Positions 3,520 to 30,825 of a DNA stretch of 63,106 nucleotides are shown here, one piece after another; position 1 is the first letter of the stretch; each line of letters starts with the position of its first letter. The notes beneath the pieces are model-generated. The model did not search any database. It was not told where the DNA came from and was given only the letters and a program-made list of their open reading frames with translations. The DNA lies in contig CAZNDY010000002.1 in the NCBI GenBank assembly GCA_964572055.1, positions 5,555 to 68,660 of the forward strand, read 5' to 3'. The translations under genes and the position numbers were made by a program. The stretch is from an uncultured Gammaproteobacteria bacterium (GTDB lineage Bacteria > Patescibacteriota > Patescibacteriia > Patescibacteriales > UBA12465).

Positions 3520-4590
3520 TTAATTTTTTTCTTGATAAATTAATTTTCGTTTGTCTAGCTCTACTAGAATATCATTCTCCTGGTAGGGATGTTTTTTGCA
3601 ATAGGGAATTATTTCTGAAAAACCCAGATTGTATTTATCAAGTTCTTTTTTTTCGGAGGCTACCTGGAAAACTTCATTATCGGTCATTATGGCTGTTATA
3701 AAAACTGGACTTAGTTCTGGTTTTTTTTCACAAAATTTTACTACTTTAATCCATGTTTTTTGCAAGGCTATTTCCATTTTTCCCTTGTTAGTTTGATCAT
3801 CTAAGATAAAGTAAACATTCTCATACATCCATTTTCTCATTTTTTCAAAGAGAATAGCTTCTGGGGTTTCTTGAAATTTTATTTTTCCACATTCTAGACT
3901 TTCTTGTTGTATTGCCTTGAGGCAAGTTATGATTCTTTGTCTTTGATTTTTTCCCAGTTTAAGATAATATTTTGGTAATTTTTTTTCTATCAAAAATCCA
4001 GTTCTTAAACAATCATTTATGTCTGAGAATAAATAAGCAATTTTGTCAGCCAACATTACTACTCCAAACTCTAGTGGTAAGCCTTCGTCAATACTTAGGC
4101 CGTTTGACCCTCTGGAGTGTTTGGTTATTCCTTTTAATGTTTCCCAGCTTAAATTAAGTCCTAGTCCAGATCTTTCTATTCTTTCAGCCAAAATTACACC
4201 AAAAAGTTCATGTCGAAATTTTTGACCACTTAATTTTTCAATCGTTCTTTCACCTAAATGACCAAAGGCGAAATGACCGAGATCATGGCCTATGCCTATA
4301 GCAGAACTTAATGATGAATTTAATTCAAGCATTTCAGCCATTATTTCAGAGATAGAAGAAACTTCAAGGCTATGGATCAAACGGTTTCTTACTAGGGGAT
4401 TGGAAGCTATTGGAAAAACCTGTGTTTTATCAGCTAGTCTTCTGAAGCTTTTGGAGTTAATAATTTTGTGGTAGTCAATTTTAAAAGGATTATTTTTTTT
4501 AAAAAAGACTGGGTCGTCTAATTGATCTTCATAATATTTTCGACCGAAAGAATTTTCCGATCTAAAAGCTAGATGTTTTAAACTTTTCAT
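3520..4590 (-). CDS. dGTP triphosphohydrolase-like HD-domain phosphohydrolase
   Basis: 356 aa; RLIHSLEVS ... GIGHDLGHFAFGH HD-domain metal motif as in the Dgt/dNTPase family. Confidence 0.75.
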   Translation of the reverse strand: MKSLKHLAFRSENSFGRKYYEDQLDDPVFFKKNNPFKIDYHKIINSKSFRRLADKTQVFPIASNPLVRNRLIHSLEVSSISEIMAEMLELNSSLSSAIGIGHDLGHFAFGHLGERTIEKLSGQKFRHELFGVILAERIERSGLGLNLSWETLKGITKHSRGSNGLSIDEGLPLEFGVVMLADKIAYLFSDINDCLRTGFLIEKKLPKYYLKLGKNQRQRIITCLKAIQQESLECGKIKFQETPEAILFEKMRKWMYENVYFILDDQTNKGKMEIALQKTWIKVVKFCEKKPELSPVFITAIMTDNEVFQVASEKKELDKYNLGFSEIIPYCKKHPYQENDILVELDKRKLIYQEKN

Positions 4591-4664
4591 GTTTTGTCCT
4601 CCTTTATTGTATTATTTTAATGTTCTTTTTTACAAAAAAAGACAGGGTTGAGCCGTCTTTTTTT

Positions 4665-4749
4665 TGGTGCCGATGGTGGGACTTGAACCCACAAGCCTTG
4701 CGGCACACGATTTTGAGTCGTGCGTGTTTGCCAATTTCACCACATCGGC
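4665..4749 (-). tRNA. tRNA-Leu (anticodon CAA), class II with long variable arm, CCA encoded
   Basis: Reverse complement folds as a cloverleaf: acceptor GCCGATG/CATCGGC, anticodon stem CACGA/TCGTG with loop CTCAAAA, variable arm GCC-gcaa-GGC, T arm GTGGG-TTCAAGT-CCCAC, 3' ACCA. Confidence 0.92.
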
Positions 4750-4762
4750 TTTTAATAAAAGA

Positions 4763-4791
4763 ATTATAAATGATTTTAATTTGCTTGTCAA
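4763..4791 (-). promoter_or_regulatory. sigma70-type promoter for tRNA-Leu
   Basis: On the minus strand TTGACA-17 nt-TATAAT (both hexamers consensus); -10 ends 13 nt before the tRNA 5' end. Confidence 0.7.
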
Positions 4792-4912
4792 AAAATATAT
4801 TGACTTTTTGTTTTATAATTGTTTATATATTCTTAGTTCTTAATAAAAATAAATTTGAATTTTAACCATATAACAAAAGTCCAACTGAGTAAAGTAGGCT
4901 GGCATTTATCTC

Positions 4913-5404
4913 ATGATTACTTCCGAAGAAAGAATTATTGATGTCCCGCTAGGATCTTTTTGTTTTGAAAAAAATCTCTTGATTAGAAAAATGATTTCTT
5001 GGGCTGACTATGATTTCGTTTATGATGAAATTGAAAGAGTGGTAGCCATGAAAGACTGGGGAAGCAATATTGTTATACCTGCTACTATTTCTTGGCTTTT
5101 GGCTGGTGGCAGTAACAATGAGTCCGAGTTTTTAAAACCAATAAATCTTGATCTAGTAAAAAGAGAAGCGGCCCTAGGAAATTTTCAATTTGGTAATTTT
5201 TTAGATTTATTAATTTTTGGGGTTTTGAATCCCAGAATATCAGAGTCTATAACAATTATTTCTTTAGCCACTAGTTTAGGGTTAAATGGTAAAATTTACT
5301 ACCCATTCATCGGGGGACAGCAGGGTATATGCACTGTTCTTGGTGTTTTGTCAGAAGATGAAATATTAAAAGTGAATGAGTATGTTTTTATAGTTAAAAA
5401 CTAA
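4913..5404 (+). CDS. hypothetical protein (163 aa)
   Basis: Clean ORF with ATG start, followed by a strong terminator; no motif recognised. Confidence 0.5.
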   Translation: MITSEERIIDVPLGSFCFEKNLLIRKMISWADYDFVYDEIERVVAMKDWGSNIVIPATISWLLAGGSNNESEFLKPINLDLVKREAALGNFQFGNFLDLLIFGVLNPRISESITIISLATSLGLNGKIYYPFIGGQQGICTVLGVLSEDEILKVNEYVFIVKN

Positions 5405-5412
5405 TTTTTTCT

Positions 5413-5444
5413 GACCTTGTTTCTTGGACGACAAGGTCTTTTTA
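5413..5444 (+). terminator. intrinsic terminator
   Basis: Perfect 8-bp stem GACCTTGT ... ACAAGGTC followed by TTTTT. Confidence 0.75.
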
Positions 5445-5499
5445 TTTGCTCAAAATTAAATTATTAGTTATAATTGTTTCAAGTTTATTTTTTAAATTT

Positions 5500-6258
5500 A
5501 TGGGAAAAATAATTTCAGTTGTAAATCAAAAAGGGGGAGTCGGAAAAACAACTACCTCTGTCAATTTAGGTGCTTATTTGGCTTATTTTGGAAAAAAAAC
5601 TTTATTAGTTGATGTTGATCCTCAAGCTAATGCTACATCTGGCTTAGGAATAAATCATCGACAAATAGAAGGAGGTGTTTATGATGTTTTAACTGGTAAT
5701 TGCTCAATTTTAGATTCTATTATTAAAACTGAGCAAGAAAATTATTATATTATACCAGCGACTGCTTCTTTGTCTGGTGCTTCTGTTGAATTGGTTGGTC
5801 TGGATAACAGGGAGTTTCGTTTATCATTAGCTCTAGAAGAGATTAGAGATAATTTTGATTATATAATAATTGATGGACCTCCTTCACTTGGGCTTTTAAC
5901 TGTTAATAGCTTGACTTCGTCGGATGAGGTTTTAATTCCTATACAAAGTGAATATTATGCTTTAGAGGGTTTGGGTCAGTTATTAGAGACAATATCTTTG
6001 ATTCAGAACAATTTAAAACCTTCTTTGGGGATTATGGGGGTTGTAATAACTATGTTTGATAAAAGAAATAGGCTGTCTTCTTTGGTTAAAGATGAGTTGT
6101 ACAAATATTTTCCTAATAAAGTTTTTAAATCAATTATCCCTAGAAGTGTTCGTTTGGCTGAAGCTCCTAGTTATGGTTTGAGTATTTTGAACTATGATTC
6201 AAAATCTATTGGGGCTAGAGCTTACGAAGAATTAGCTAAAGAAATTATATCTAAATAA
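5500..6258 (+). CDS. parA: chromosome partitioning ATPase ParA/Soj
   Basis: MGKIISVVNQKGGVGKTTT deviant Walker A, DPQANAT, IIIDGPPSLG; ORF-track start 5446 is TTG, ATG 5500 gives the canonical N-terminus. Confidence 0.9.
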   Translation: MGKIISVVNQKGGVGKTTTSVNLGAYLAYFGKKTLLVDVDPQANATSGLGINHRQIEGGVYDVLTGNCSILDSIIKTEQENYYIIPATASLSGASVELVGLDNREFRLSLALEEIRDNFDYIIIDGPPSLGLLTVNSLTSSDEVLIPIQSEYYALEGLGQLLETISLIQNNLKPSLGIMGVVITMFDKRNRLSSLVKDELYKYFPNKVFKSIIPRSVRLAEAPSYGLSILNYDSKSIGARAYEELAKEIISK

Positions 6259-23674: not shown

Positions 23675-24838
23675 ATGATATTGAAGAACAAAAAAAAGGC
23701 TTCAGTCGACAAATATTTATCTTTTACTATTCCATTGTTAATTGTTTTTGGTTTAGTTATGCTTTTTAGTGCTTCTTTGGCTGTTTCTCAGTCTAATTTT
23801 GGAGAGCCCTATCATTATGTTAGGGGACAGATTTTTGGTTTAGTTTTTGGTCTCTTTTTGTTTTTTTTGTTTTTTAAAATAGATTATCATTTTTTTAAAA
23901 AATGTTCTTTCATCTTTCTTCTTTTTTCTATAATCCTTTTGATTTCAGTTTTCATACCTGGCTTAGGAAATGAATATGGGACATCTCGTAGTTGGATAGT
24001 TATTTTTGGTAAATCTTTTCAGGTTTCGGAGTTTGTCAAATTATTTTTTTTATTTTATTTAGCTGCTTGGTTGGAGTCTAAAAAAGATGATTTGAAGAAA
24101 TTTTCTACCGGAATATTTCCTTTTTTGGTGGTTTTGATGACCATTGGAGCATTGATTTTAAAACAACCAGATTTGGGGACTTTTTTGATTATTTTTTTTG
24201 TTTCTCTGATGGTTTATTTAGTGGCTGGCGGTAATCTAAGTCATTTATTTGTTTTATTTTTGGTGATGATTATTGGAATTTTGTTTATTTTTAATTCCAT
24301 GAACTCAGATAGCGACAAAGGCTTAATAAAAGAGTATCAAATCAACAGAATAAAGTGTTTGCAAGATCCCGATTTTGATAGAGATATTTGTTATCAGGTT
24401 AATCAATCTCTGATTGCCGTTGGTTCTGGTGGTTTGTGGGGGAGGGGTTTAGGCGAGAGTAGACAAAAGTTTAATTATTTGCCAGAGGTTTGGGCTGATT
24501 CTATTTTTCCTATTATAGCTGAAGAAATTGGTTTTATTGGTTCTTTGGTTTTAATTTTAATTTATCTTTTTATATTTATTAGAGGAATGAAAATTGCTAG
24601 TAGGGCGCCTGATCTTTTTGGTCAGTCTCTAGCTGTTGGTATATCTGTTTGGATTTTTTTTCAAGCTTTTTTAAATATAGCTGGAATGATAAATTTAGTT
24701 CCAATGACTGGTGTCCCTTTGCCTTTTATTAGTGCTGGAGGAACTTCTTTATCTATTTTGTTGGCTGCTTTTGGAATTTTATTAAATATCAGTCGTCAAC
24801 TTGTAGATGAAAAAAATAATTTTTATGGAAAACAATAA
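23675..24838 (+). CDS. ftsW: SEDS-family cell-division protein FtsW
   Basis: 10-TM SEDS layout, QVSEFVKL, PEVWADSIF, GVPLPFISAGGTS motifs. Confidence 0.88.
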   Translation: MILKNKKKASVDKYLSFTIPLLIVFGLVMLFSASLAVSQSNFGEPYHYVRGQIFGLVFGLFLFFLFFKIDYHFFKKCSFIFLLFSIILLISVFIPGLGNEYGTSRSWIVIFGKSFQVSEFVKLFFLFYLAAWLESKKDDLKKFSTGIFPFLVVLMTIGALILKQPDLGTFLIIFFVSLMVYLVAGGNLSHLFVLFLVMIIGILFIFNSMNSDSDKGLIKEYQINRIKCLQDPDFDRDICYQVNQSLIAVGSGGLWGRGLGESRQKFNYLPEVWADSIFPIIAEEIGFIGSLVLILIYLFIFIRGMKIASRAPDLFGQSLAVGISVWIFFQAFLNIAGMINLVPMTGVPLPFISAGGTSLSILLAAFGILLNISRQLVDEKNNFYGKQ

Positions 24839-25898
24839 AAACAAAAAAATAATTTTAAGTGGTGGTGGTACCGGAGGTTCTGTTATTCCTTTAATGTTTA
24901 TAAGGCAAGAATTAAAAGATAATTTTGATTTTTTATTTGTTGGTACTTATAGAGGAGTGGAAAAAAATATAGTTTTATCGGAAGGTTTAAGATATAAAGC
25001 GATTTTTAGTGGAAAGTTTAGACGTTATTTTTCTGTTTATAATTTTATTGATTTATTTAAAATTTTTATAGCTTTTTGGCAATCTTTATTTTTGCTTATT
25101 AAAGAAAAACCAGATTTAATTATTAGTGCCGGTGGCTTTGTCTCTGTTCCTCTGGTTTTTTCTTCTTGGTTTTTAAAAATACCAGTTTTAATACACCAGC
25201 AAGATGTTATTCCTGGTTTAGCCAATAAATTAATGGCCCCATTTTCTAAAGTAGTTACAGTTACTTTTGAAAAATCTTTAAAATCTTATGGCAAAAAGGG
25301 GGTGTTAATAGGGAATATAGCTAATAATTTAAATTCCTCGAATGTTATTAAAAATGATATTTTTAAAAAATACCATTTGGATAATAACTTGCCATTGTTA
25401 TTGGTTCTTGGTGGTGGTACTGGTTCTTATTTTATAAATAATTTGTTAAAATTATCTTTAAAAGAATTAAGTTTATTAGTTAATATTGTTCATGTTAGTG
25501 GTGGAAATGATAGGGGATCTAAAATAGAAGAAAACATAAAAAATTATTTTAGATTTGAATTTTTAAAACATCAAGACTTAATTGAGTTAATGAAGGTTTC
25601 TGATTTACTTGTTTCTAGATGTGGTCTATCTACTTTGACTGAAATTTCTTTTTTAAAAAAACCTTCAATACTTATTCCTATGCCTAATTCTCATCAAGAG
25701 TTTAACGCTTGGGAGTTTAAAAATAAGGAAGCTGCTATGATTTTGGAGGAAAAAAATCTTGACTCGGCTTTATTAATCAAGACAATAAAAGAAATTTTAT
25801 CTAACAATTTTTTAAGGGAAAAGTTGTCTAAAAATGTTTCAGATGTAATAAAAAATGGCAATCAAGAAATGATTGCCATTGTTAAGTCTTTTTTCTAA
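24807..25898 (+). CDS. murG: UDP-GlcNAc:lipid I N-acetylglucosaminyltransferase
   Basis: LSGGGTGGS, HQQD, LGGGTGS, RCGLSTLTE motifs; start may be ATG 24825. Confidence 0.88.
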   Translation: MKKIIFMENNKNKKIILSGGGTGGSVIPLMFIRQELKDNFDFLFVGTYRGVEKNIVLSEGLRYKAIFSGKFRRYFSVYNFIDLFKIFIAFWQSLFLLIKEKPDLIISAGGFVSVPLVFSSWFLKIPVLIHQQDVIPGLANKLMAPFSKVVTVTFEKSLKSYGKKGVLIGNIANNLNSSNVIKNDIFKKYHLDNNLPLLLVLGGGTGSYFINNLLKLSLKELSLLVNIVHVSGGNDRGSKIEENIKNYFRFEFLKHQDLIELMKVSDLLVSRCGLSTLTEISFLKKPSILIPMPNSHQEFNAWEFKNKEAAMILEEKNLDSALLIKTIKEILSNNFLREKLSKNVSDVIKNGNQEMIAIVKSFF

Positions 25899-26083
25899 TC
25901 AATTTTGTTGCTAGTCATTTCTTGTGCCCACTCTTGAGCCATTTTTCTAGCCTCTTCTTGATTGTCTCCTTTTTTAACAAAGATTTCGAAAAAAAATTCT
26001 TCCAGATCCTTTGGATCTGTTTTTTTGTTCAGTTCATTTATTTCTTCTGGTGAAAAAATTTTTTCCATTTTTAATTCCTCCAT
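25895..26083 (-). CDS. small acidic hypothetical protein (62 aa), third gene of reverse-strand operon
   Basis: ORF begins 4 nt after the stop of the 500-aa gene; 3' end overlaps the murG stop by 4 nt. Confidence 0.4.
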   Translation of the reverse strand: MEELKMEKIFSPEEINELNKKTDPKDLEEFFFEIFVKKGDNQEEARKMAQEWAQEMTSNKID

Positions 26084-26087
26084 ATTT

Positions 26088-27590
26088 TTAAATTAATTCT
26101 TTTTTAAAATTAAGCATTTTTTCACAAAAAGGGTTTATAAAATTTTCCTTAAATTTACTTATGAAAATATAGATTGGCAAGTCTTTATTTTCTTCGTTTT
26201 CGTTATTTATTTCTTTGTGATTTTTTAAAAAATTATCAATCATATCTTTTTTGGAATAGATTTCTTGATCAATTTTGCCTATTAGATTTGCTTTTTCTTC
26301 TTGACTCATATCATTTATTTTTTTCATTTCATTTGATATTTCTAAATAGCTATTCTTAAGCAATTCTTGTTCGCGTCCAATTTCTTTTTTAAGATTCTCT
26401 ACAGCTATTTGCAAGTGTCCATCGTTATAAACATTTTCTAATCCTTTTCCGTTATGTTTTTCTTCTTTAAATTTTTTACTAATATCAATAAAATTTCTTA
26501 ATAATAGTAACTCTTCTTCATTTTGACAAAGCTCCCTTGTTTTTCTAATTATTTCTAATTTGTTATTTCCACTTAATTCAAATAAATTAGCTATTCTATT
26601 AATAAATTTTTTAGATTTGTTTTCGTTTTTTTGATCATCTTTTTCATTCAAGAAAGAGTCGAAGTTAAAACCTTTAATTTCATTAATTAAGCTCTTGAAA
26701 TACAGTTCTACCTGACCAGATTTGTCTAGGATGTTAAAGTTTTCTTGTTCGTTTTCAGATATTTTATTTTTAATTATTTGATATTTAGTATCTTTAGCGC
26801 CTGGATTTATTAAGCCATTTGGTTCTTCTGTTTTTTGTCCAAAAGCTTCAACTTCAATTTCTCTAATCTCTCCTTTTTCATTTTTTGTTTCAATTTTTCC
26901 CTTTATAAAAGGACATCCAGTATTAGGTGCTATCCCAGTTTCAAACCCTAAAGATTTAAATTCTTGTGACATTTTTTCGAAATCTTTTTCGTGAAAAATA
27001 ATATCAATATCGTCTGGTTGTTTTTTACTTTCAGTGGCATTTATTAAAAAAGCTATCGATCCGGTTAAATACCAAGGATATTGGCATTTATTAAAAATTC
27101 TAGAACAAACTTTAAGAGCTTCTTTTTGATGACCAGGAATTCTTTCAATAAATCTTTCTTGTTCTTCTTGGTCGGAGTCCCTTATTTCTAGTCTTGATTT
27201 TATTTTTTCTGGGCTAGGATGTTGGTCTATTTCTTTTTCTTTGTTGTTTATTTTTAACTCTAAATCATTTACTAGCGACATTATCTCTTCTTGAATTTTA
27301 TCTATTTCTTTTATTACAGTAATAGCCTTTTGATTGTCTAATAAATCATGTTTATCTTTTTTGTAAACACCACTTGTTCCTTCGATGGCAATTAAAAAAT
27401 TTTTTAAATCATTTTGTAATTTTTCATAAGAAGTTTTATTTTCTTCTTTTTGTTTGTTTATTTTTTCTTTAGTTTCGTTTATTATTAATTTTGCTTTTTC
27501 GACAATATTAATTTTTTCTGCAATATTTTTTTCCAGTGGATTTATTTCTTCTATATCTAAATTTTCTTTTTCTATTTGCTCTTTTTTCAT
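26088..27590 (-). CDS. Pol-beta-superfamily nucleotidyltransferase-fold protein flanked by long coiled-coil regions
   Basis: 500 aa; YLTGSIAFLINATESKKQPDDIDIIFHEKDFEKMSQEFKSLGF = G-S...D-x-D minimal NTase signature (residues ~177-196). Residues 1-150 and 320-480 are K/E/N-rich and heptad-like. Confidence 0.55.
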   Translation of the reverse strand: MKKEQIEKENLDIEEINPLEKNIAEKINIVEKAKLIINETKEKINKQKEENKTSYEKLQNDLKNFLIAIEGTSGVYKKDKHDLLDNQKAITVIKEIDKIQEEIMSLVNDLELKINNKEKEIDQHPSPEKIKSRLEIRDSDQEEQERFIERIPGHQKEALKVCSRIFNKCQYPWYLTGSIAFLINATESKKQPDDIDIIFHEKDFEKMSQEFKSLGFETGIAPNTGCPFIKGKIETKNEKGEIREIEVEAFGQKTEEPNGLINPGAKDTKYQIIKNKISENEQENFNILDKSGQVELYFKSLINEIKGFNFDSFLNEKDDQKNENKSKKFINRIANLFELSGNNKLEIIRKTRELCQNEEELLLLRNFIDISKKFKEEKHNGKGLENVYNDGHLQIAVENLKKEIGREQELLKNSYLEISNEMKKINDMSQEEKANLIGKIDQEIYSKKDMIDNFLKNHKEINNENEENKDLPIYIFISKFKENFINPFCEKMLNFKKELI

Positions 27591-27595
27591 ATTTA

Positions 27596-27775
27596 TTAAA
27601 AGTTATTTTTAATATTTAGTCTTATTTTGTCTAGGTGTTCTTTTTCTTTTTCTTTGATAAAATCTAAAACAATTTTTTCTTGTCTGAGTTTAAGTTTTTT
27701 TATTTGATTGGTGTATTCTTGATAGATGGTTTTTATTTCCTCTATCCTTTTTTCTATTTCTAAGTCAATATTCAT
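27596..27775 (-). CDS. small coiled-coil hypothetical protein (59 aa; below ORF-track cutoff), first gene of reverse-strand operon
   Basis: Hand translation: MNIDLEIEKRIEEIKTIYQEYTNQIKKLKLRQEKIVLDFIKEKEKEHLDKIRLNIKNNF*; stop lies 5 nt before the start of the 500-aa gene. Confidence 0.35.
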   Translation of the reverse strand: MNIDLEIEKRIEEIKTIYQEYTNQIKKLKLRQEKIVLDFIKEKEKEHLDKIRLNIKNNF

Positions 27776-27910
27776 TTTTTTTCTTTTAATGCTTTAGTAA
27801 ATTTTACTAAAAAAAGCCTTTTTTGTCAATTAAAATTTATATTTATTTTTTTATTTTTTTGTGTTAATATATTAAGGATAGATTTATTTTTTATTCTTAA
27901 ATTTAAATAT

Positions 27911-28663
27911 ATGGATTTTTTTATTGTTCTTTTGGTTTTTGTTTTTATTTTTTTCTTATCGTCTTTAAAACAAATAAATCAATACGAAAGAGGTGTTAAA
28001 TTTACAATGGGTCGTTTTTCTAGTGTTATGAATCCAGGTTGGAAGTTTTTGTGGCCAATTTTTCAAACTTATAAGAAGGTTGATATTAGAGTTAAAGCTG
28101 TTGACGTGCCAGATCAAAGGGCTATTACTAGGGACAATGTGCCAGTAACAGTTAATGCTGTTTTATATTATAAAATATCTGATGCTTCTAAGGCTATTAT
28201 TGAGGTTGAAAATTTTTATTATGCTGTCTCTCAATATGCTCAAACAACCATGAGAAACATTGTCGGAGAAACAAGTCTTGACGAGCTTTTAACTAGTCGT
28301 GATAAAATTGCTGAAAGAATTAGAGAAATTGTCGACAAAGAAACTGATGCCTGGGGCTTAAAGGTTAATAACGTTGAATTAAAAGATATAATATTGCCAG
28401 AGTCAATGGAAAGAACTATTGCTAAACAGGCTGAGGCTGAAAGGGAAAAAAGGGCTGTTATTATTAATGCTCAAGGAGAGTTGGCGGCTGCTGAGAATTT
28501 GTCTAATGCTGCCAAGATATTATCATCTTCTGATGGTGCCTTACATTTAAGAACATTGCAGTCAATAAATGATATATCGTCTGATCAATCAAATACAATA
28601 GTTTTTGTTACTCCGGTTGAAATATTAAAAGCGTTTGAAAGTTTTAAGAATAAGAAAGATTAA
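27911..28663 (+). CDS. SPFH/band-7 (stomatin/prohibitin-like) membrane protein
   Basis: N-terminal TM anchor, then ERGVKFTMGRF...TRDNVPVTVNAVLYYKI...RNIVGETSLDELL...WGLKV..VELKDI, the typical SPFH domain. Confidence 0.88.
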   Translation: MDFFIVLLVFVFIFFLSSLKQINQYERGVKFTMGRFSSVMNPGWKFLWPIFQTYKKVDIRVKAVDVPDQRAITRDNVPVTVNAVLYYKISDASKAIIEVENFYYAVSQYAQTTMRNIVGETSLDELLTSRDKIAERIREIVDKETDAWGLKVNNVELKDIILPESMERTIAKQAEAEREKRAVIINAQGELAAAENLSNAAKILSSSDGALHLRTLQSINDISSDQSNTIVFVTPVEILKAFESFKNKKD

Positions 28664-28703
28664 ATTAAATTAAAATAATTCGCACCTTTAAAAAAAATAA
28701 ATC

Positions 28704-29315
28704 ATGAAGAGGAGAAAAAAAATTGTTAAACAGGCAATTGAGTTGTTTGATTTTCAAATAAATAAATTAGCCTCTTTGGATGTTCCGGCTTTTGTTATGA
28801 CTGACCCTTTGCTTTCTTTAATGGAGCTCAGAGATAATGTTGTTTCTAAGATTAAAGAGCTTGATGATAAAGGATTATTGTCTGGTGTGTGGTTTGTTCC
28901 AGTTATTCCTTTTAGTATTATAGGGATTTTAAATCAAGTTCAGTTTTTACAGTTCAACAATAACAAGGGTTATTCATATTTTAATTGTGATGATGTTGTG
29001 GATTTAATAGCGACACCTCAAACGCCTTACTATGTCTGGGGTGTAAATGAAGGTTTTGCTAGCTCTAAGGAGTCGGTTGATTCTGAAAAATTTTTGACTT
29101 TGTCGGAGTCATTAGCTTTGTGTTTTCATAGTGACATCTTGACTAGACATTATGTTAAAGCTCTTAACTCATTTTTTAAAACCGTTAAAGATTCACCCAT
29201 TATTCACATCTACAGAGGCGAACATCCTAAGGTTGATTGGGATTATTTCGAAGGTCAAGAAAGCGATAATTTTTTAAAAGAAGCAAGACCTTTTTGTCTT
29301 GGAAGAATCTTTTAA
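28704..29315 (+). CDS. hypothetical protein (203 aa)
   Basis: Clean ORF 40 nt after the SPFH gene, followed by a terminator; no motif recognised. Confidence 0.5.
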   Translation: MKRRKKIVKQAIELFDFQINKLASLDVPAFVMTDPLLSLMELRDNVVSKIKELDDKGLLSGVWFVPVIPFSIIGILNQVQFLQFNNNKGYSYFNCDDVVDLIATPQTPYYVWGVNEGFASSKESVDSEKFLTLSESLALCFHSDILTRHYVKALNSFFKTVKDSPIIHIYRGEHPKVDWDYFEGQESDNFLKEARPFCLGRIF

Positions 29316-29318
29316 TTT

Positions 29319-29346
29319 AAGTGGAGTCATTGATTCCACTTTTTTA
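29319..29346 (+). terminator. intrinsic terminator
   Basis: AAGTGGA ... TCCACTT 7-bp stem followed by TTTTT. Confidence 0.7.
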
Positions 29347-29382
29347 TTTATTTAAATATGTTATAATAATTTTATAATATTT

Positions 29383-30825
29383 ATGATTTTAAATAAAAAA
29401 GACAATGTTTATATGGTTGGGATTAAAGGGGTTGGCATGGCAATGTTGGCTCAGTTTTTGGTTTTTAAGGGCTTTAGTGTTTCTGGCTCGGACGTTGAAG
29501 AAGAGTTTCAAACTAATAAAACTTTAGCTAACTCTAAAATAAAAGTTAAGCACGGATTTTCTTTGGAAAATTTTCCGGAAAAAATTGATTTGGTTATCCG
29601 TTCTTCAGCTTTTAATATTGATAAAAATATAGAGCTTAAGCATTTAAATAAGAGAGGGGTAAAAATAATAACTTATGCTGAGGCGGTGGGATATTTATTT
29701 AATCAGTATTTTGGTATTTCTGTTTGTGGGAGTCATGGAAAAACAACGGTTACTTCTTGGTTGGGTTATGTTTTATTTAAATCAAAGGTTGAGCCTAACG
29801 TTTTAAGTGGTTCTTATGTTAGGCAATTTAATGGAAGTTCTTTGATGGGAAAATCAAAGTATTTTATTCTAGAATCTGATGAATATCAAAACAAATTGCA
29901 ATATTTTAATCCACAAATGGTTGTTTTAAATAATATTGATTTTGATCATCCAGATTACTTTAAAGATGAAAAAGCTTATTTTAAAGTTTTTTCTGACTTT
30001 GTTAAAAAAGTTCCCAAGTCTGGTTTTTTAGTAACCAATATTAAAGACAAGCAATGTTTAAAAATCAGTAAATTTAATCAAGGTAAAAATATTTTTTATA
30101 CTATTTCTGACATGGTTAATATAAAAGATTTGAGTAAGTTGAATTATAAGTATTTATATAGGGCAGAGAATATAAAGACTGAAAAGTACGGACAAAGTTT
30201 TATTTTGTATAAAAATAATAAAAGTTTGGGTAAGTTTAAAATCAAGTTAATGGGTGAACATAATATTTCTAATGCTTTGGCTGTAATTTCTTCTTGTCTA
30301 GAATTGAGAGTTGATTTGGAAAAAATTAGAAAAAATTTGTTTTTGTTTACTGGGGCTTCTCGTCGCTTCGATGTCTTGGGTGTTTATAGGGGGTCGGTTA
30401 TTATAGATGATTATGGACATCATCCAACTGAAGTAAAAGCATGTCTTCAGGCAGTTAAACAAAGATATGGAGATAAAAAAATAATTACTGTTTTTCATCC
30501 GCACACCGTAAGTCGAACTAAGGCTTTATTCGATGATTTTGTTAAAAGCTTTGAATTAACTGATAGTTTATATTTAATGGAGATTTATACTTCAGCTCGA
30601 GAAAAGTCTCAAAAACTTTCCAGCCTTGATTTAATGAAAAAAATAGGGCAATATAATTTGAAAAATAATAAAAAGCAAGAATTAAAATATTTTAAAAATT
30701 TTTCTGATATTGAAAAAGATTTGAGAAAAATAGCTAGCAAGGATAAAGTTATTTTGCTTTTGGGTGCTGGTGATATTTTTCGAGTAGCTTATAAATTACT
30801 TAATATATCTTCTAAAGATATTTAA
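29383..30825 (+). CDS. murC: UDP-N-acetylmuramate--L-alanine ligase
   Basis: VGIKGVGMAMLAQFL, GSHGKTTVTSW P-loop, DDYGHHPTE. Confidence 0.9.
   Translation: MILNKKDNVYMVGIKGVGMAMLAQFLVFKGFSVSGSDVEEEFQTNKTLANSKIKVKHGFSLENFPEKIDLVIRSSAFNIDKNIELKHLNKRGVKIITYAEAVGYLFNQYFGISVCGSHGKTTVTSWLGYVLFKSKVEPNVLSGSYVRQFNGSSLMGKSKYFILESDEYQNKLQYFNPQMVVLNNIDFDHPDYFKDEKAYFKVFSDFVKKVPKSGFLVTNIKDKQCLKISKFNQGKNIFYTISDMVNIKDLSKLNYKYLYRAENIKTEKYGQSFILYKNNKSLGKFKIKLMGEHNISNALAVISSCLELRVDLEKIRKNLFLFTGASRRFDVLGVYRGSVIIDDYGHHPTEVKACLQAVKQRYGDKKIITVFHPHTVSRTKALFDDFVKSFELTDSLYLMEIYTSAREKSQKLSSLDLMKKIGQYNLKNNKKQELKYFKNFSDIEKDLRKIASKDKVILLLGAGDIFRVAYKLLNISSKDI

Follow-up and report, generated by a model that had tools for sequence, protein, structure and literature searches.

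A three-gene module, lodged between murG and murC in Falkowbacteria-like Patescibacteria, that encodes a probable nucleotidyltransferase of a new family

The genomes of Patescibacteria are tiny, and few of the genes specific to their lineages have been assigned a role. Here we describe three such genes, packed on the minus strand between murG and murC of the division and cell wall (dcw) cluster, in a 63,106-nucleotide (nt) stretch of DNA that we call the window (positions 5,555 to 68,660 of contig CAZNDY010000002.1, assembly GCA_964572055.1). From sequence and modelled structure, we think it likely that the trio is a self-contained, lineage-specific accessory operon that joins a probably active nucleotidyltransferase (NTase) of a new family in the Pol-beta superfamily to two dedicated small helical partner proteins. 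The operon is real and looks expressed, and its NTase constitutes a new family within a well-known superfamily; the trio is best described as a well-delimited enzyme module, not as a new kind of system. A literature search for such a module found nothing. The parts of the module are as follows (aa, amino acids; pLDDT, predicted local distance difference test).

27596-27775, minus strand: first open reading frame (ORF) of the trio, encoding a 59-aa helical protein of the ‘up’ family, consensus IYxxY...KQxxI...KLxxIRxxI
26088-27590, minus strand: middle ORF of the trio, encoding the 500-aa NTase
27225-27533, minus strand: N-terminal extension of the NTase (aa 20-122), two long helices, variable
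26721-27191, minus strand: Pol-beta-type nucleotidyltransferase core (aa 134-290), supported by alignments, AlphaFold model and Foldseek
27057-27062, minus strand: G177-S178
27009-27011, minus strand: D194
27003-27005, minus strand: D196
26847-26849, minus strand: E248
26091-26720, minus strand: C-terminal helical domain of the NTase (aa 291-500), pLDDT mostly 85-95
25895-26083, minus strand: last ORF of the trio, encoding a 62-aa acidic helical protein of the ‘dn’ family, consensus S-x-E-E ... G-x3-E-E-A-x3-A-x-E

The original prediction, made from the letters of the window alone, had read the central region of the 500-aa protein as a minimal Pol-beta-superfamily NTase on the strength of the peptide YLTGSIAFLINATESKKQPDDIDIIFHEKDF, which is indeed present in the protein, with G177-S178 and D194/D196 correctly numbered. 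A word-indexed search recovered 28 homologues and an exhaustive search 29 representatives, down to ~20% identity and spanning 365-563 aa in length; wherever a source is named it is a member of the Patescibacteria, in one case Candidatus Falkowbacteria. In a 30-sequence alignment that includes distant members, G177, S178, D194, D196 and the start methionine are the sole invariant columns, while K190, F199, D203, E248, F250, Q252, N262, G264, Y297, E304, K328 and R332 are conserved in at least 90% of the sequences. A second alignment, of 33 sequences, agrees, and across alignments reaching 18-25% identity the catalytic residues are invariant or nearly so.

The motifs that define the NTase fold can each be placed in sequence and in structure. 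The hG[GS] motif corresponds to T-G177-S178, invariant in the 30- and 33-sequence alignments, and helix 177-184 of the model starts there; the DxD motif corresponds to the invariant D194-I-D196-I, with a strand at 195-200; and the third carboxylate, h[DE]h, is E248 on strand 242-252, within a V-E248-A that no close homologue lacks and that at least 90% of the distant ones share. In the two AlphaFold2 models, one of the window protein (pLDDT 80.5) and one of a homologue that is short by nature (372 aa; pLDDT 88.3, predicted template modelling score 0.84), the GS opens a short helix, the DxD lies on a strand and E248 on a neighbouring strand, which is the arrangement described for the NTase fold in a survey that also associates the conserved carboxylate and GS pattern with active members (Kuchta et al., 2009, PMC2794190).

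Comparison of the models with the PDB using Foldseek returned a superposable alpha/beta core at probability 1.00, the leading match being TM1012 (E 3e-5, target template modelling (TM) score 0.60), with LnuA (E 1.8e-3), the toxin MenT1 (8an5; E 4e-3, ~205 aligned columns), ANT(2'')-Ia (E 1e-2), the NTase-like antigen 5uvd and the palm domains of Pol lambda and Cid1 also at probability 1.00. The same search against viral structures (BFVD) gave generic NTase cores only, none at E <= 1e-3. With the motifs conserved in ~30 homologues, placed as expected in the models and carried by a core that Foldseek aligns to minimal NTases, both the assignment of the fold and the predicted residues therefore hold.

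The regions flanking the core had been described as coiled-coil-like, which needs correcting for the C-terminal side. On the N-terminal side the model has long helices at residues 20-73 and 80-122 (pLDDT ~45-79), and these ~120 residues are missing from aligned homologues of 370-442 aa. On the C-terminal side, by contrast, lies a confidently folded helical domain and not a mere coiled coil; its Y297, E304, K328 and R332 are invariant in the 33-sequence alignment, and its ~200 residues have no convincing match beyond the core in the PDB or BFVD. As modelled, this C-terminal helical domain is novel.

The two small proteins accompany the NTase in a pattern that depends on its length. A profile search with the 59-aa family recovered 27 proteins, 51-65 aa long, a number close to that of the NTases, and those with a source name come from Falkowbacteria or Patescibacteria. 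As a single query the 62-aa protein gave only three close matches, and its relatives, acidic proteins of ~60-75 aa, were recovered from gene neighbourhoods. No consistent Pfam family was found for the 59-aa proteins and none for the 62-aa family. Counted over 24 intact loci, the 59-aa gene is present in 16 of 16 with an NTase of at least 452 aa, that is, with the N-terminal extension, and in none of the eight with a shorter NTase. Because extension and small protein always occur together, we infer that the one binds the other, which suggests that the 59-aa protein docks on the N-terminal helical hairpin. The 62-aa gene follows the NTase in 19 of the 24 loci, with every one of the 16 long NTases and with three of the shorter (L005, L003 and L037), and it also stands with the NTase at sites outside the dcw cluster. 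Neither small gene occurs in L043-L046 or L008, where the NTase keeps the GS, the DxD and the third carboxylate. The expectation that the small ORFs would be conserved with the large gene is borne out, including where the NTase is only 23-29% identical and where the module sits outside the dcw cluster.

A detail of the 62-aa ORF concerns its start. It contains a second in-frame ATG, Met6, at 26066-26068, conserved in L010 and L014; because a GGAGG precedes this ATG by 8 nt, Met6 may be the true start, giving a predicted product of 57 aa.

The layout of the trio was reproduced as first reported: 5 nt separate the 59-aa from the 500-aa ORF, 4 nt separate the 500-aa from the 62-aa ORF, and the end of the 62-aa ORF overlaps the murG stop by 4 nt. 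Around it lie the following genes and signals.

24807-25898: murG (Pfam PF03033/PF04101)
25854-25880, minus strand: terminator-like hairpin with an 11-bp stem and a T-run, just past the 62-aa ORF and within the 3' end of murG
27793-27811: perfect 9+1+9 palindrome TTTAGTAAA-T-TTTACTAAA, exact, overlapping the -10 hexamer of the following site
27801-27829, minus strand: promoter-like TTGACA-17 nt-TAAAAT, 11 of 12 positions, the best match of the region
27911-28663: SPFH gene (Pfam PF01145)
Between the SPFH gene and murC: 203-aa ORF without family assignment
29383-30825: murC (Pfam)

With a promoter-like site ahead of it and a terminator-like hairpin behind it, the trio therefore appears to be a self-contained transcription unit, convergent with murG. 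The motif TTGACA-17-TAnnnT lies 5' of the module in all 10 of the genus-g1 loci scanned over the full ~140-nt upstream stretch; it was not found in L005 and L011, in which shorter stretches were scanned, or in L032, L033 and L034. Selection acts on all three ORFs: against the three closest relatives, the ratio of nonsynonymous to synonymous substitution rates is 0.09-0.15 for the 59-aa ORF, 0.08-0.12 for the 500-aa ORF and 0.03-0.29 for the 62-aa ORF, and by this measure all three are real genes under purifying selection.

Two observations bear on the transcription of the neighbouring genes. The hairpin at 25854-25880 has T-rich tracts on both strands and, judged by its sequence, may serve as terminator of both murG and the convergent trio. 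Further along, a promoter-like TTTAAA-16-TATAAT stands immediately 5' of murC at 29351-29378, and a terminator-like hairpin lies downstream of the 203-aa ORF at 29319-29341; the dcw cluster therefore appears to be split into separate transcription units here.

The distribution of the module, drawn from a GTDB-based genome set, is that of an accessory trait of one family. The NTase occurs in 10 of the 21 species of the window's genus and in 19 of the 148 genomes, representing six of the 16 genera, of the window's family. Among 201 sampled genomes of the order no other genus has it, save for one marginal match (E 2e-4), and 400 other genomes of the phylum yielded one weak match. Every module-bearing genome of genus g1 carries the module antisense between murG and murC, and the same antisense position recurs where the NTase is only 23-29% identical (L033/G631, L036, L037 and other genomes of genus g412), in hosts whose MurG and MurC are ~50% identical to those of the window. 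In module-free relatives (eight species of the genus and four family members from other genera) murG and murC lie ~0-50 nt apart, which agrees with the premise that the two genes are normally contiguous. The trio is accordingly no orphan, as it had been termed, being a family-wide set; among the copies with examined flanks, most lie between murG and murC.

Copies at other sites (L003/L064, L008, L032, L058 and L059) show that the module can move. The L003/L064 copy adjoins a gene with weak integrase-core similarity, and that in L032, in an organism of 51% G+C, lies between rpoD and greA. The NTase has one or both small genes with it at four of the five sites and stands alone in L008; the neighbourhood comparison that had been proposed thus places the module outside dcw clusters as well as within them. 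At 3836-5384 of L063 (G627:C46) the NTase copy is split across two frames with in-frame stops, and is either a pseudogene or an assembly error.

How the module came to this distribution can be read by comparing its phylogeny with that of the surrounding genes. A tree of MurG alone left the base of the genus unresolved, and a concatenate of MraY, FtsW, MurG, MurC and MurB (1900 columns) was used instead. In it the sister group to the genus is the module-bearing pair L033 and L036, and the tree includes one fully module-positive clade of six, the window among them, and a second clade that mixes six positive with eight negative lineages. Well-supported branches force at least three changes of module state, which is most simply read as a single old insertion and, later, at least three clean losses. 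The NTase tree has the same well-supported clades as the dcw tree, on branches several times longer: close relatives are 74-87% identical in the NTase and 82-91% in MurC, and between genera the NTase falls to ~25% identity while the Mur proteins stand at ~50%, so that at deep distances its divergence is about twice that of the neighbouring dcw genes. To judge from these comparisons, descent is largely vertical and under purifying selection. A recent horizontally acquired island was considered and set aside, since the NTase tree recovers the well-supported clades of the dcw tree.

Taken as an accessory enzyme operon, the module would work and have evolved as follows. The NTase would bind a nucleoside triphosphate with Mg2+ and pass its nucleotidyl group on to an acceptor hydroxyl, the acceptor being bound by the C-terminal domain, with the 59-aa protein docked, where present, on the optional N-terminal hairpin and the 62-aa acidic protein acting as a regulator, adaptor or substrate. 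It would have entered the gap between murG and murC before the genera of one Falkowbacteria-like family of Patescibacteria diverged, and would afterwards have been inherited mostly vertically, with at least three clean losses and occasional relocation as a unit.

Several results weigh against this account. A search for RNA sequencing runs found none, and the runs that hold the sequence are all DNA metagenomes, from sludge, landfill and wastewater. No Pfam NTase family reaches its gathering score for the window protein, and PF10706, the ANT(2'') family, matches residues 165-217 at E 0.042 with 14.4 bits against a gathering score of 21. A PDB sequence-profile search with the family alignment returned coiled-coil noise only (haemagglutinin stem, keratin), and the structural matches span only ~150-200 residues, with a target TM-score between 0.5 and 0.6. 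The proposed contact of the small proteins with the NTase follows from their co-occurrence. The copies at other sites count here too, as do the deep nodes of the NTase tree, which are unresolved, so that the module may at times have been transferred by recombination across the conserved genes on either side, murG and murC.

The resemblance to toxin-antitoxin or defence modules that had been pointed out at the start deserves the fullest comparison. On this explanation the NTase would be a toxin of the MenT/AbiEii kind that nucleotidylates tRNA or another essential target, with a small protein as its antitoxin, in a toxin-antitoxin or abortive-infection module. MenT1 is among the Foldseek matches, and MenT1/MenA1 and AbiEii/AbiEi share with the module an NTase core followed by helical elements and one or more small adjacent genes. 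The small-large-small layout with its tight spacing, the patchy occurrence in the genus (10 of 21), the occasional relocation, once beside the gene of weak integrase-core similarity, and the palindrome over the -10 hexamer in the window all fit as well. However, neither small gene is related to a known antitoxin, and both are missing in five lineages (L043-L046 and L008) whose NTase keeps the GS, DxD and glutamate, and no DUF1814/AbiEii Pfam match was found at E <= 0.1 in 30 members. PADLOC matched neither the NTase nor the 59-aa and 203-aa ORFs, and matched the 62-aa ORF only weakly (E 0.014); PHROGs and NCBIfam scans of the trio and its 203-aa neighbour returned nothing meaningful, and tblastn of the NTase against phage and plasmid collections found no match. 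Inheritance is vertical, at a fixed chromosomal site and under purifying selection, and the palindrome is neither conserved nor rarer than chance in the window. Other NTase-based systems fit no better: MNT-HEPN pairs have an adjacent HEPN-domain partner, and neither HEPN nor any other Pfam domain was found in the small proteins or neighbours here, just as had been noted, nor was there an effector-like neighbour; and CD-NTases of cyclic-oligonucleotide-based anti-phage signalling systems (CBASS) are represented only by a weak Foldseek match to CdnE (E 0.011, probability 0.72), with no PADLOC match for the NTase. The lone, intact-looking NTases, the lack of firm defence, phage or plasmid matches and the largely vertical descent speak against the resemblance, and for these reasons a toxin-antitoxin module is a minority rival that we hold unlikely. 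An obligate toxin-antitoxin pair is set aside, since the NTase stands alone in some lineages.

The remaining alternatives concern what the enzyme acts on, or whether it acts at all. That it modifies a small molecule in the manner of ANT(2'') or Lnu enzymes, whether an environmental or host-made compound of the aminoglycoside or lincosamide type, is quite unlikely, even though PF10706 (Aminoglyc_resit, ANT(2'')/TM1012) is the closest sequence family and the only recurrent one in Pfam, with weak matches in 10 of 30 members (best E 5.5e-4), and Foldseek places TM1012, LnuA and ANT(2'')-Ia near the top of its matches, all sharing the minimal Pol-beta core with its hG[GS], DxD and third carboxylate. 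All of the Pfam matches fall below the gathering threshold, and a plasmid search gave no association with mobile resistance contexts; no antibiotic setting is known for the module. Known ANT(2'') and LnuA enzymes are, moreover, single proteins of ~160-180 aa, and those of PF10706 have a single domain in ~150-180 aa, whereas the module NTase, at 370-560 aa, is two to three times longer, with an optional N-terminal hairpin, an extra helical domain of ~200 aa and two partner genes. A dcw-linked cell-envelope enzyme, either a LicD/FKRP-like phosphotransferase or an NTase acting on a peptidoglycan precursor or division protein, appears very unlikely. The position between murG and murC is held in several genera despite the low NTase identity, and the spacing of G[ST]...DDxDh...D[FY] resembles that of the LicD motif. 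FKRP is among the Foldseek matches, if weakly (E 0.07, probability 1.00, ~100 columns), and TM1012, whose core the module shares, was the closest template for both fukutin and FKRP (Kuchta et al., 2009, PMC2794190). Against this, no LicD Pfam match was found in 30 members, and the module has its own promoter-like site on the opposite strand, is found elsewhere than in the dcw cluster in at least five loci and is dispensable, being absent from half of the genus and most of the family; an old insertion into a highly syntenic cluster accounts for its position equally well. That the protein has no enzymatic role, and is an inert scaffold with the NTase fold or a structural coiled coil, would suit the long helical extensions and the K/E-rich composition. 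It is scarcely credible given that conservation down to ~20% identity extends to all three carboxylates, to the GS motif and to the Lys/Arg in the helix that comes next, the pattern of active members (Kuchta et al., 2009).

The accessory enzyme operon that we favour defines three linked protein families, namely an NTase with a novel helical domain, a ~60-aa helical partner tied to its N-terminal extension and a ~60-75-aa acidic partner, and with catalytic residues, distribution and evolutionary behaviour in hand the NTase becomes tractable for biochemistry. A bolder proposal is that the three proteins form a previously unknown enzyme complex peculiar to Falkowbacteria-like Patescibacteria, and that the antisense position of the module between murG and murC reflects a functional link with division or with cell-wall synthesis; the complex might, for instance, nucleotidylate a division protein, a glycopolymer of the envelope or a precursor of peptidoglycan. 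We regard this as doubtful and give it a small probability. If an envelope role were true, the module would extend the dcw programme of ultrasmall bacteria in a lineage-specific way; were the NTase a toxin or resistance enzyme, those classes would be extended to a new architecture.

The palindrome that had been singled out in the divergent promoter region is exact in sequence, but is kept only in the window and its closest relative (L015); L014 has one mismatch, and the remaining loci are without it. Nor is it exceptional in so AT-rich a window, which holds 12 such palindromes, nested ones included, against 5.1 expected, with a maximum of 14 in first-order Markov simulations. A role as operator was rejected as unsupported, the palindrome being neither conserved nor enriched.

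Beyond the core family, 6113-6448 of L035 (G529:C65), from a distant genome of the phylum, belongs to a 926-aa open frame whose match to the family profile (E 5e-10) is limited to the NTase core. The gap between murG and murC, for its part, gathers other accessory genes in the window's family. The SPFH gene and the 203-aa ORF (27911-29315 of the window) occur there only in the window and its three closest relatives; L001 has, at 5080-5682, a 200-aa ORF that is 41% identical to the 203-aa ORF, without the SPFH gene; L037 has an unrelated 185-aa ORF at 2345-2902; and L007 has two pilin-like genes at 4351-5470. Between the NTase gene and murC, near the murC start, five loci (L006, L007, L011, L012 and L018) carry a 15-nt palindrome, ATTATATCATATAAT, which may be a promoter or operator element of murC.

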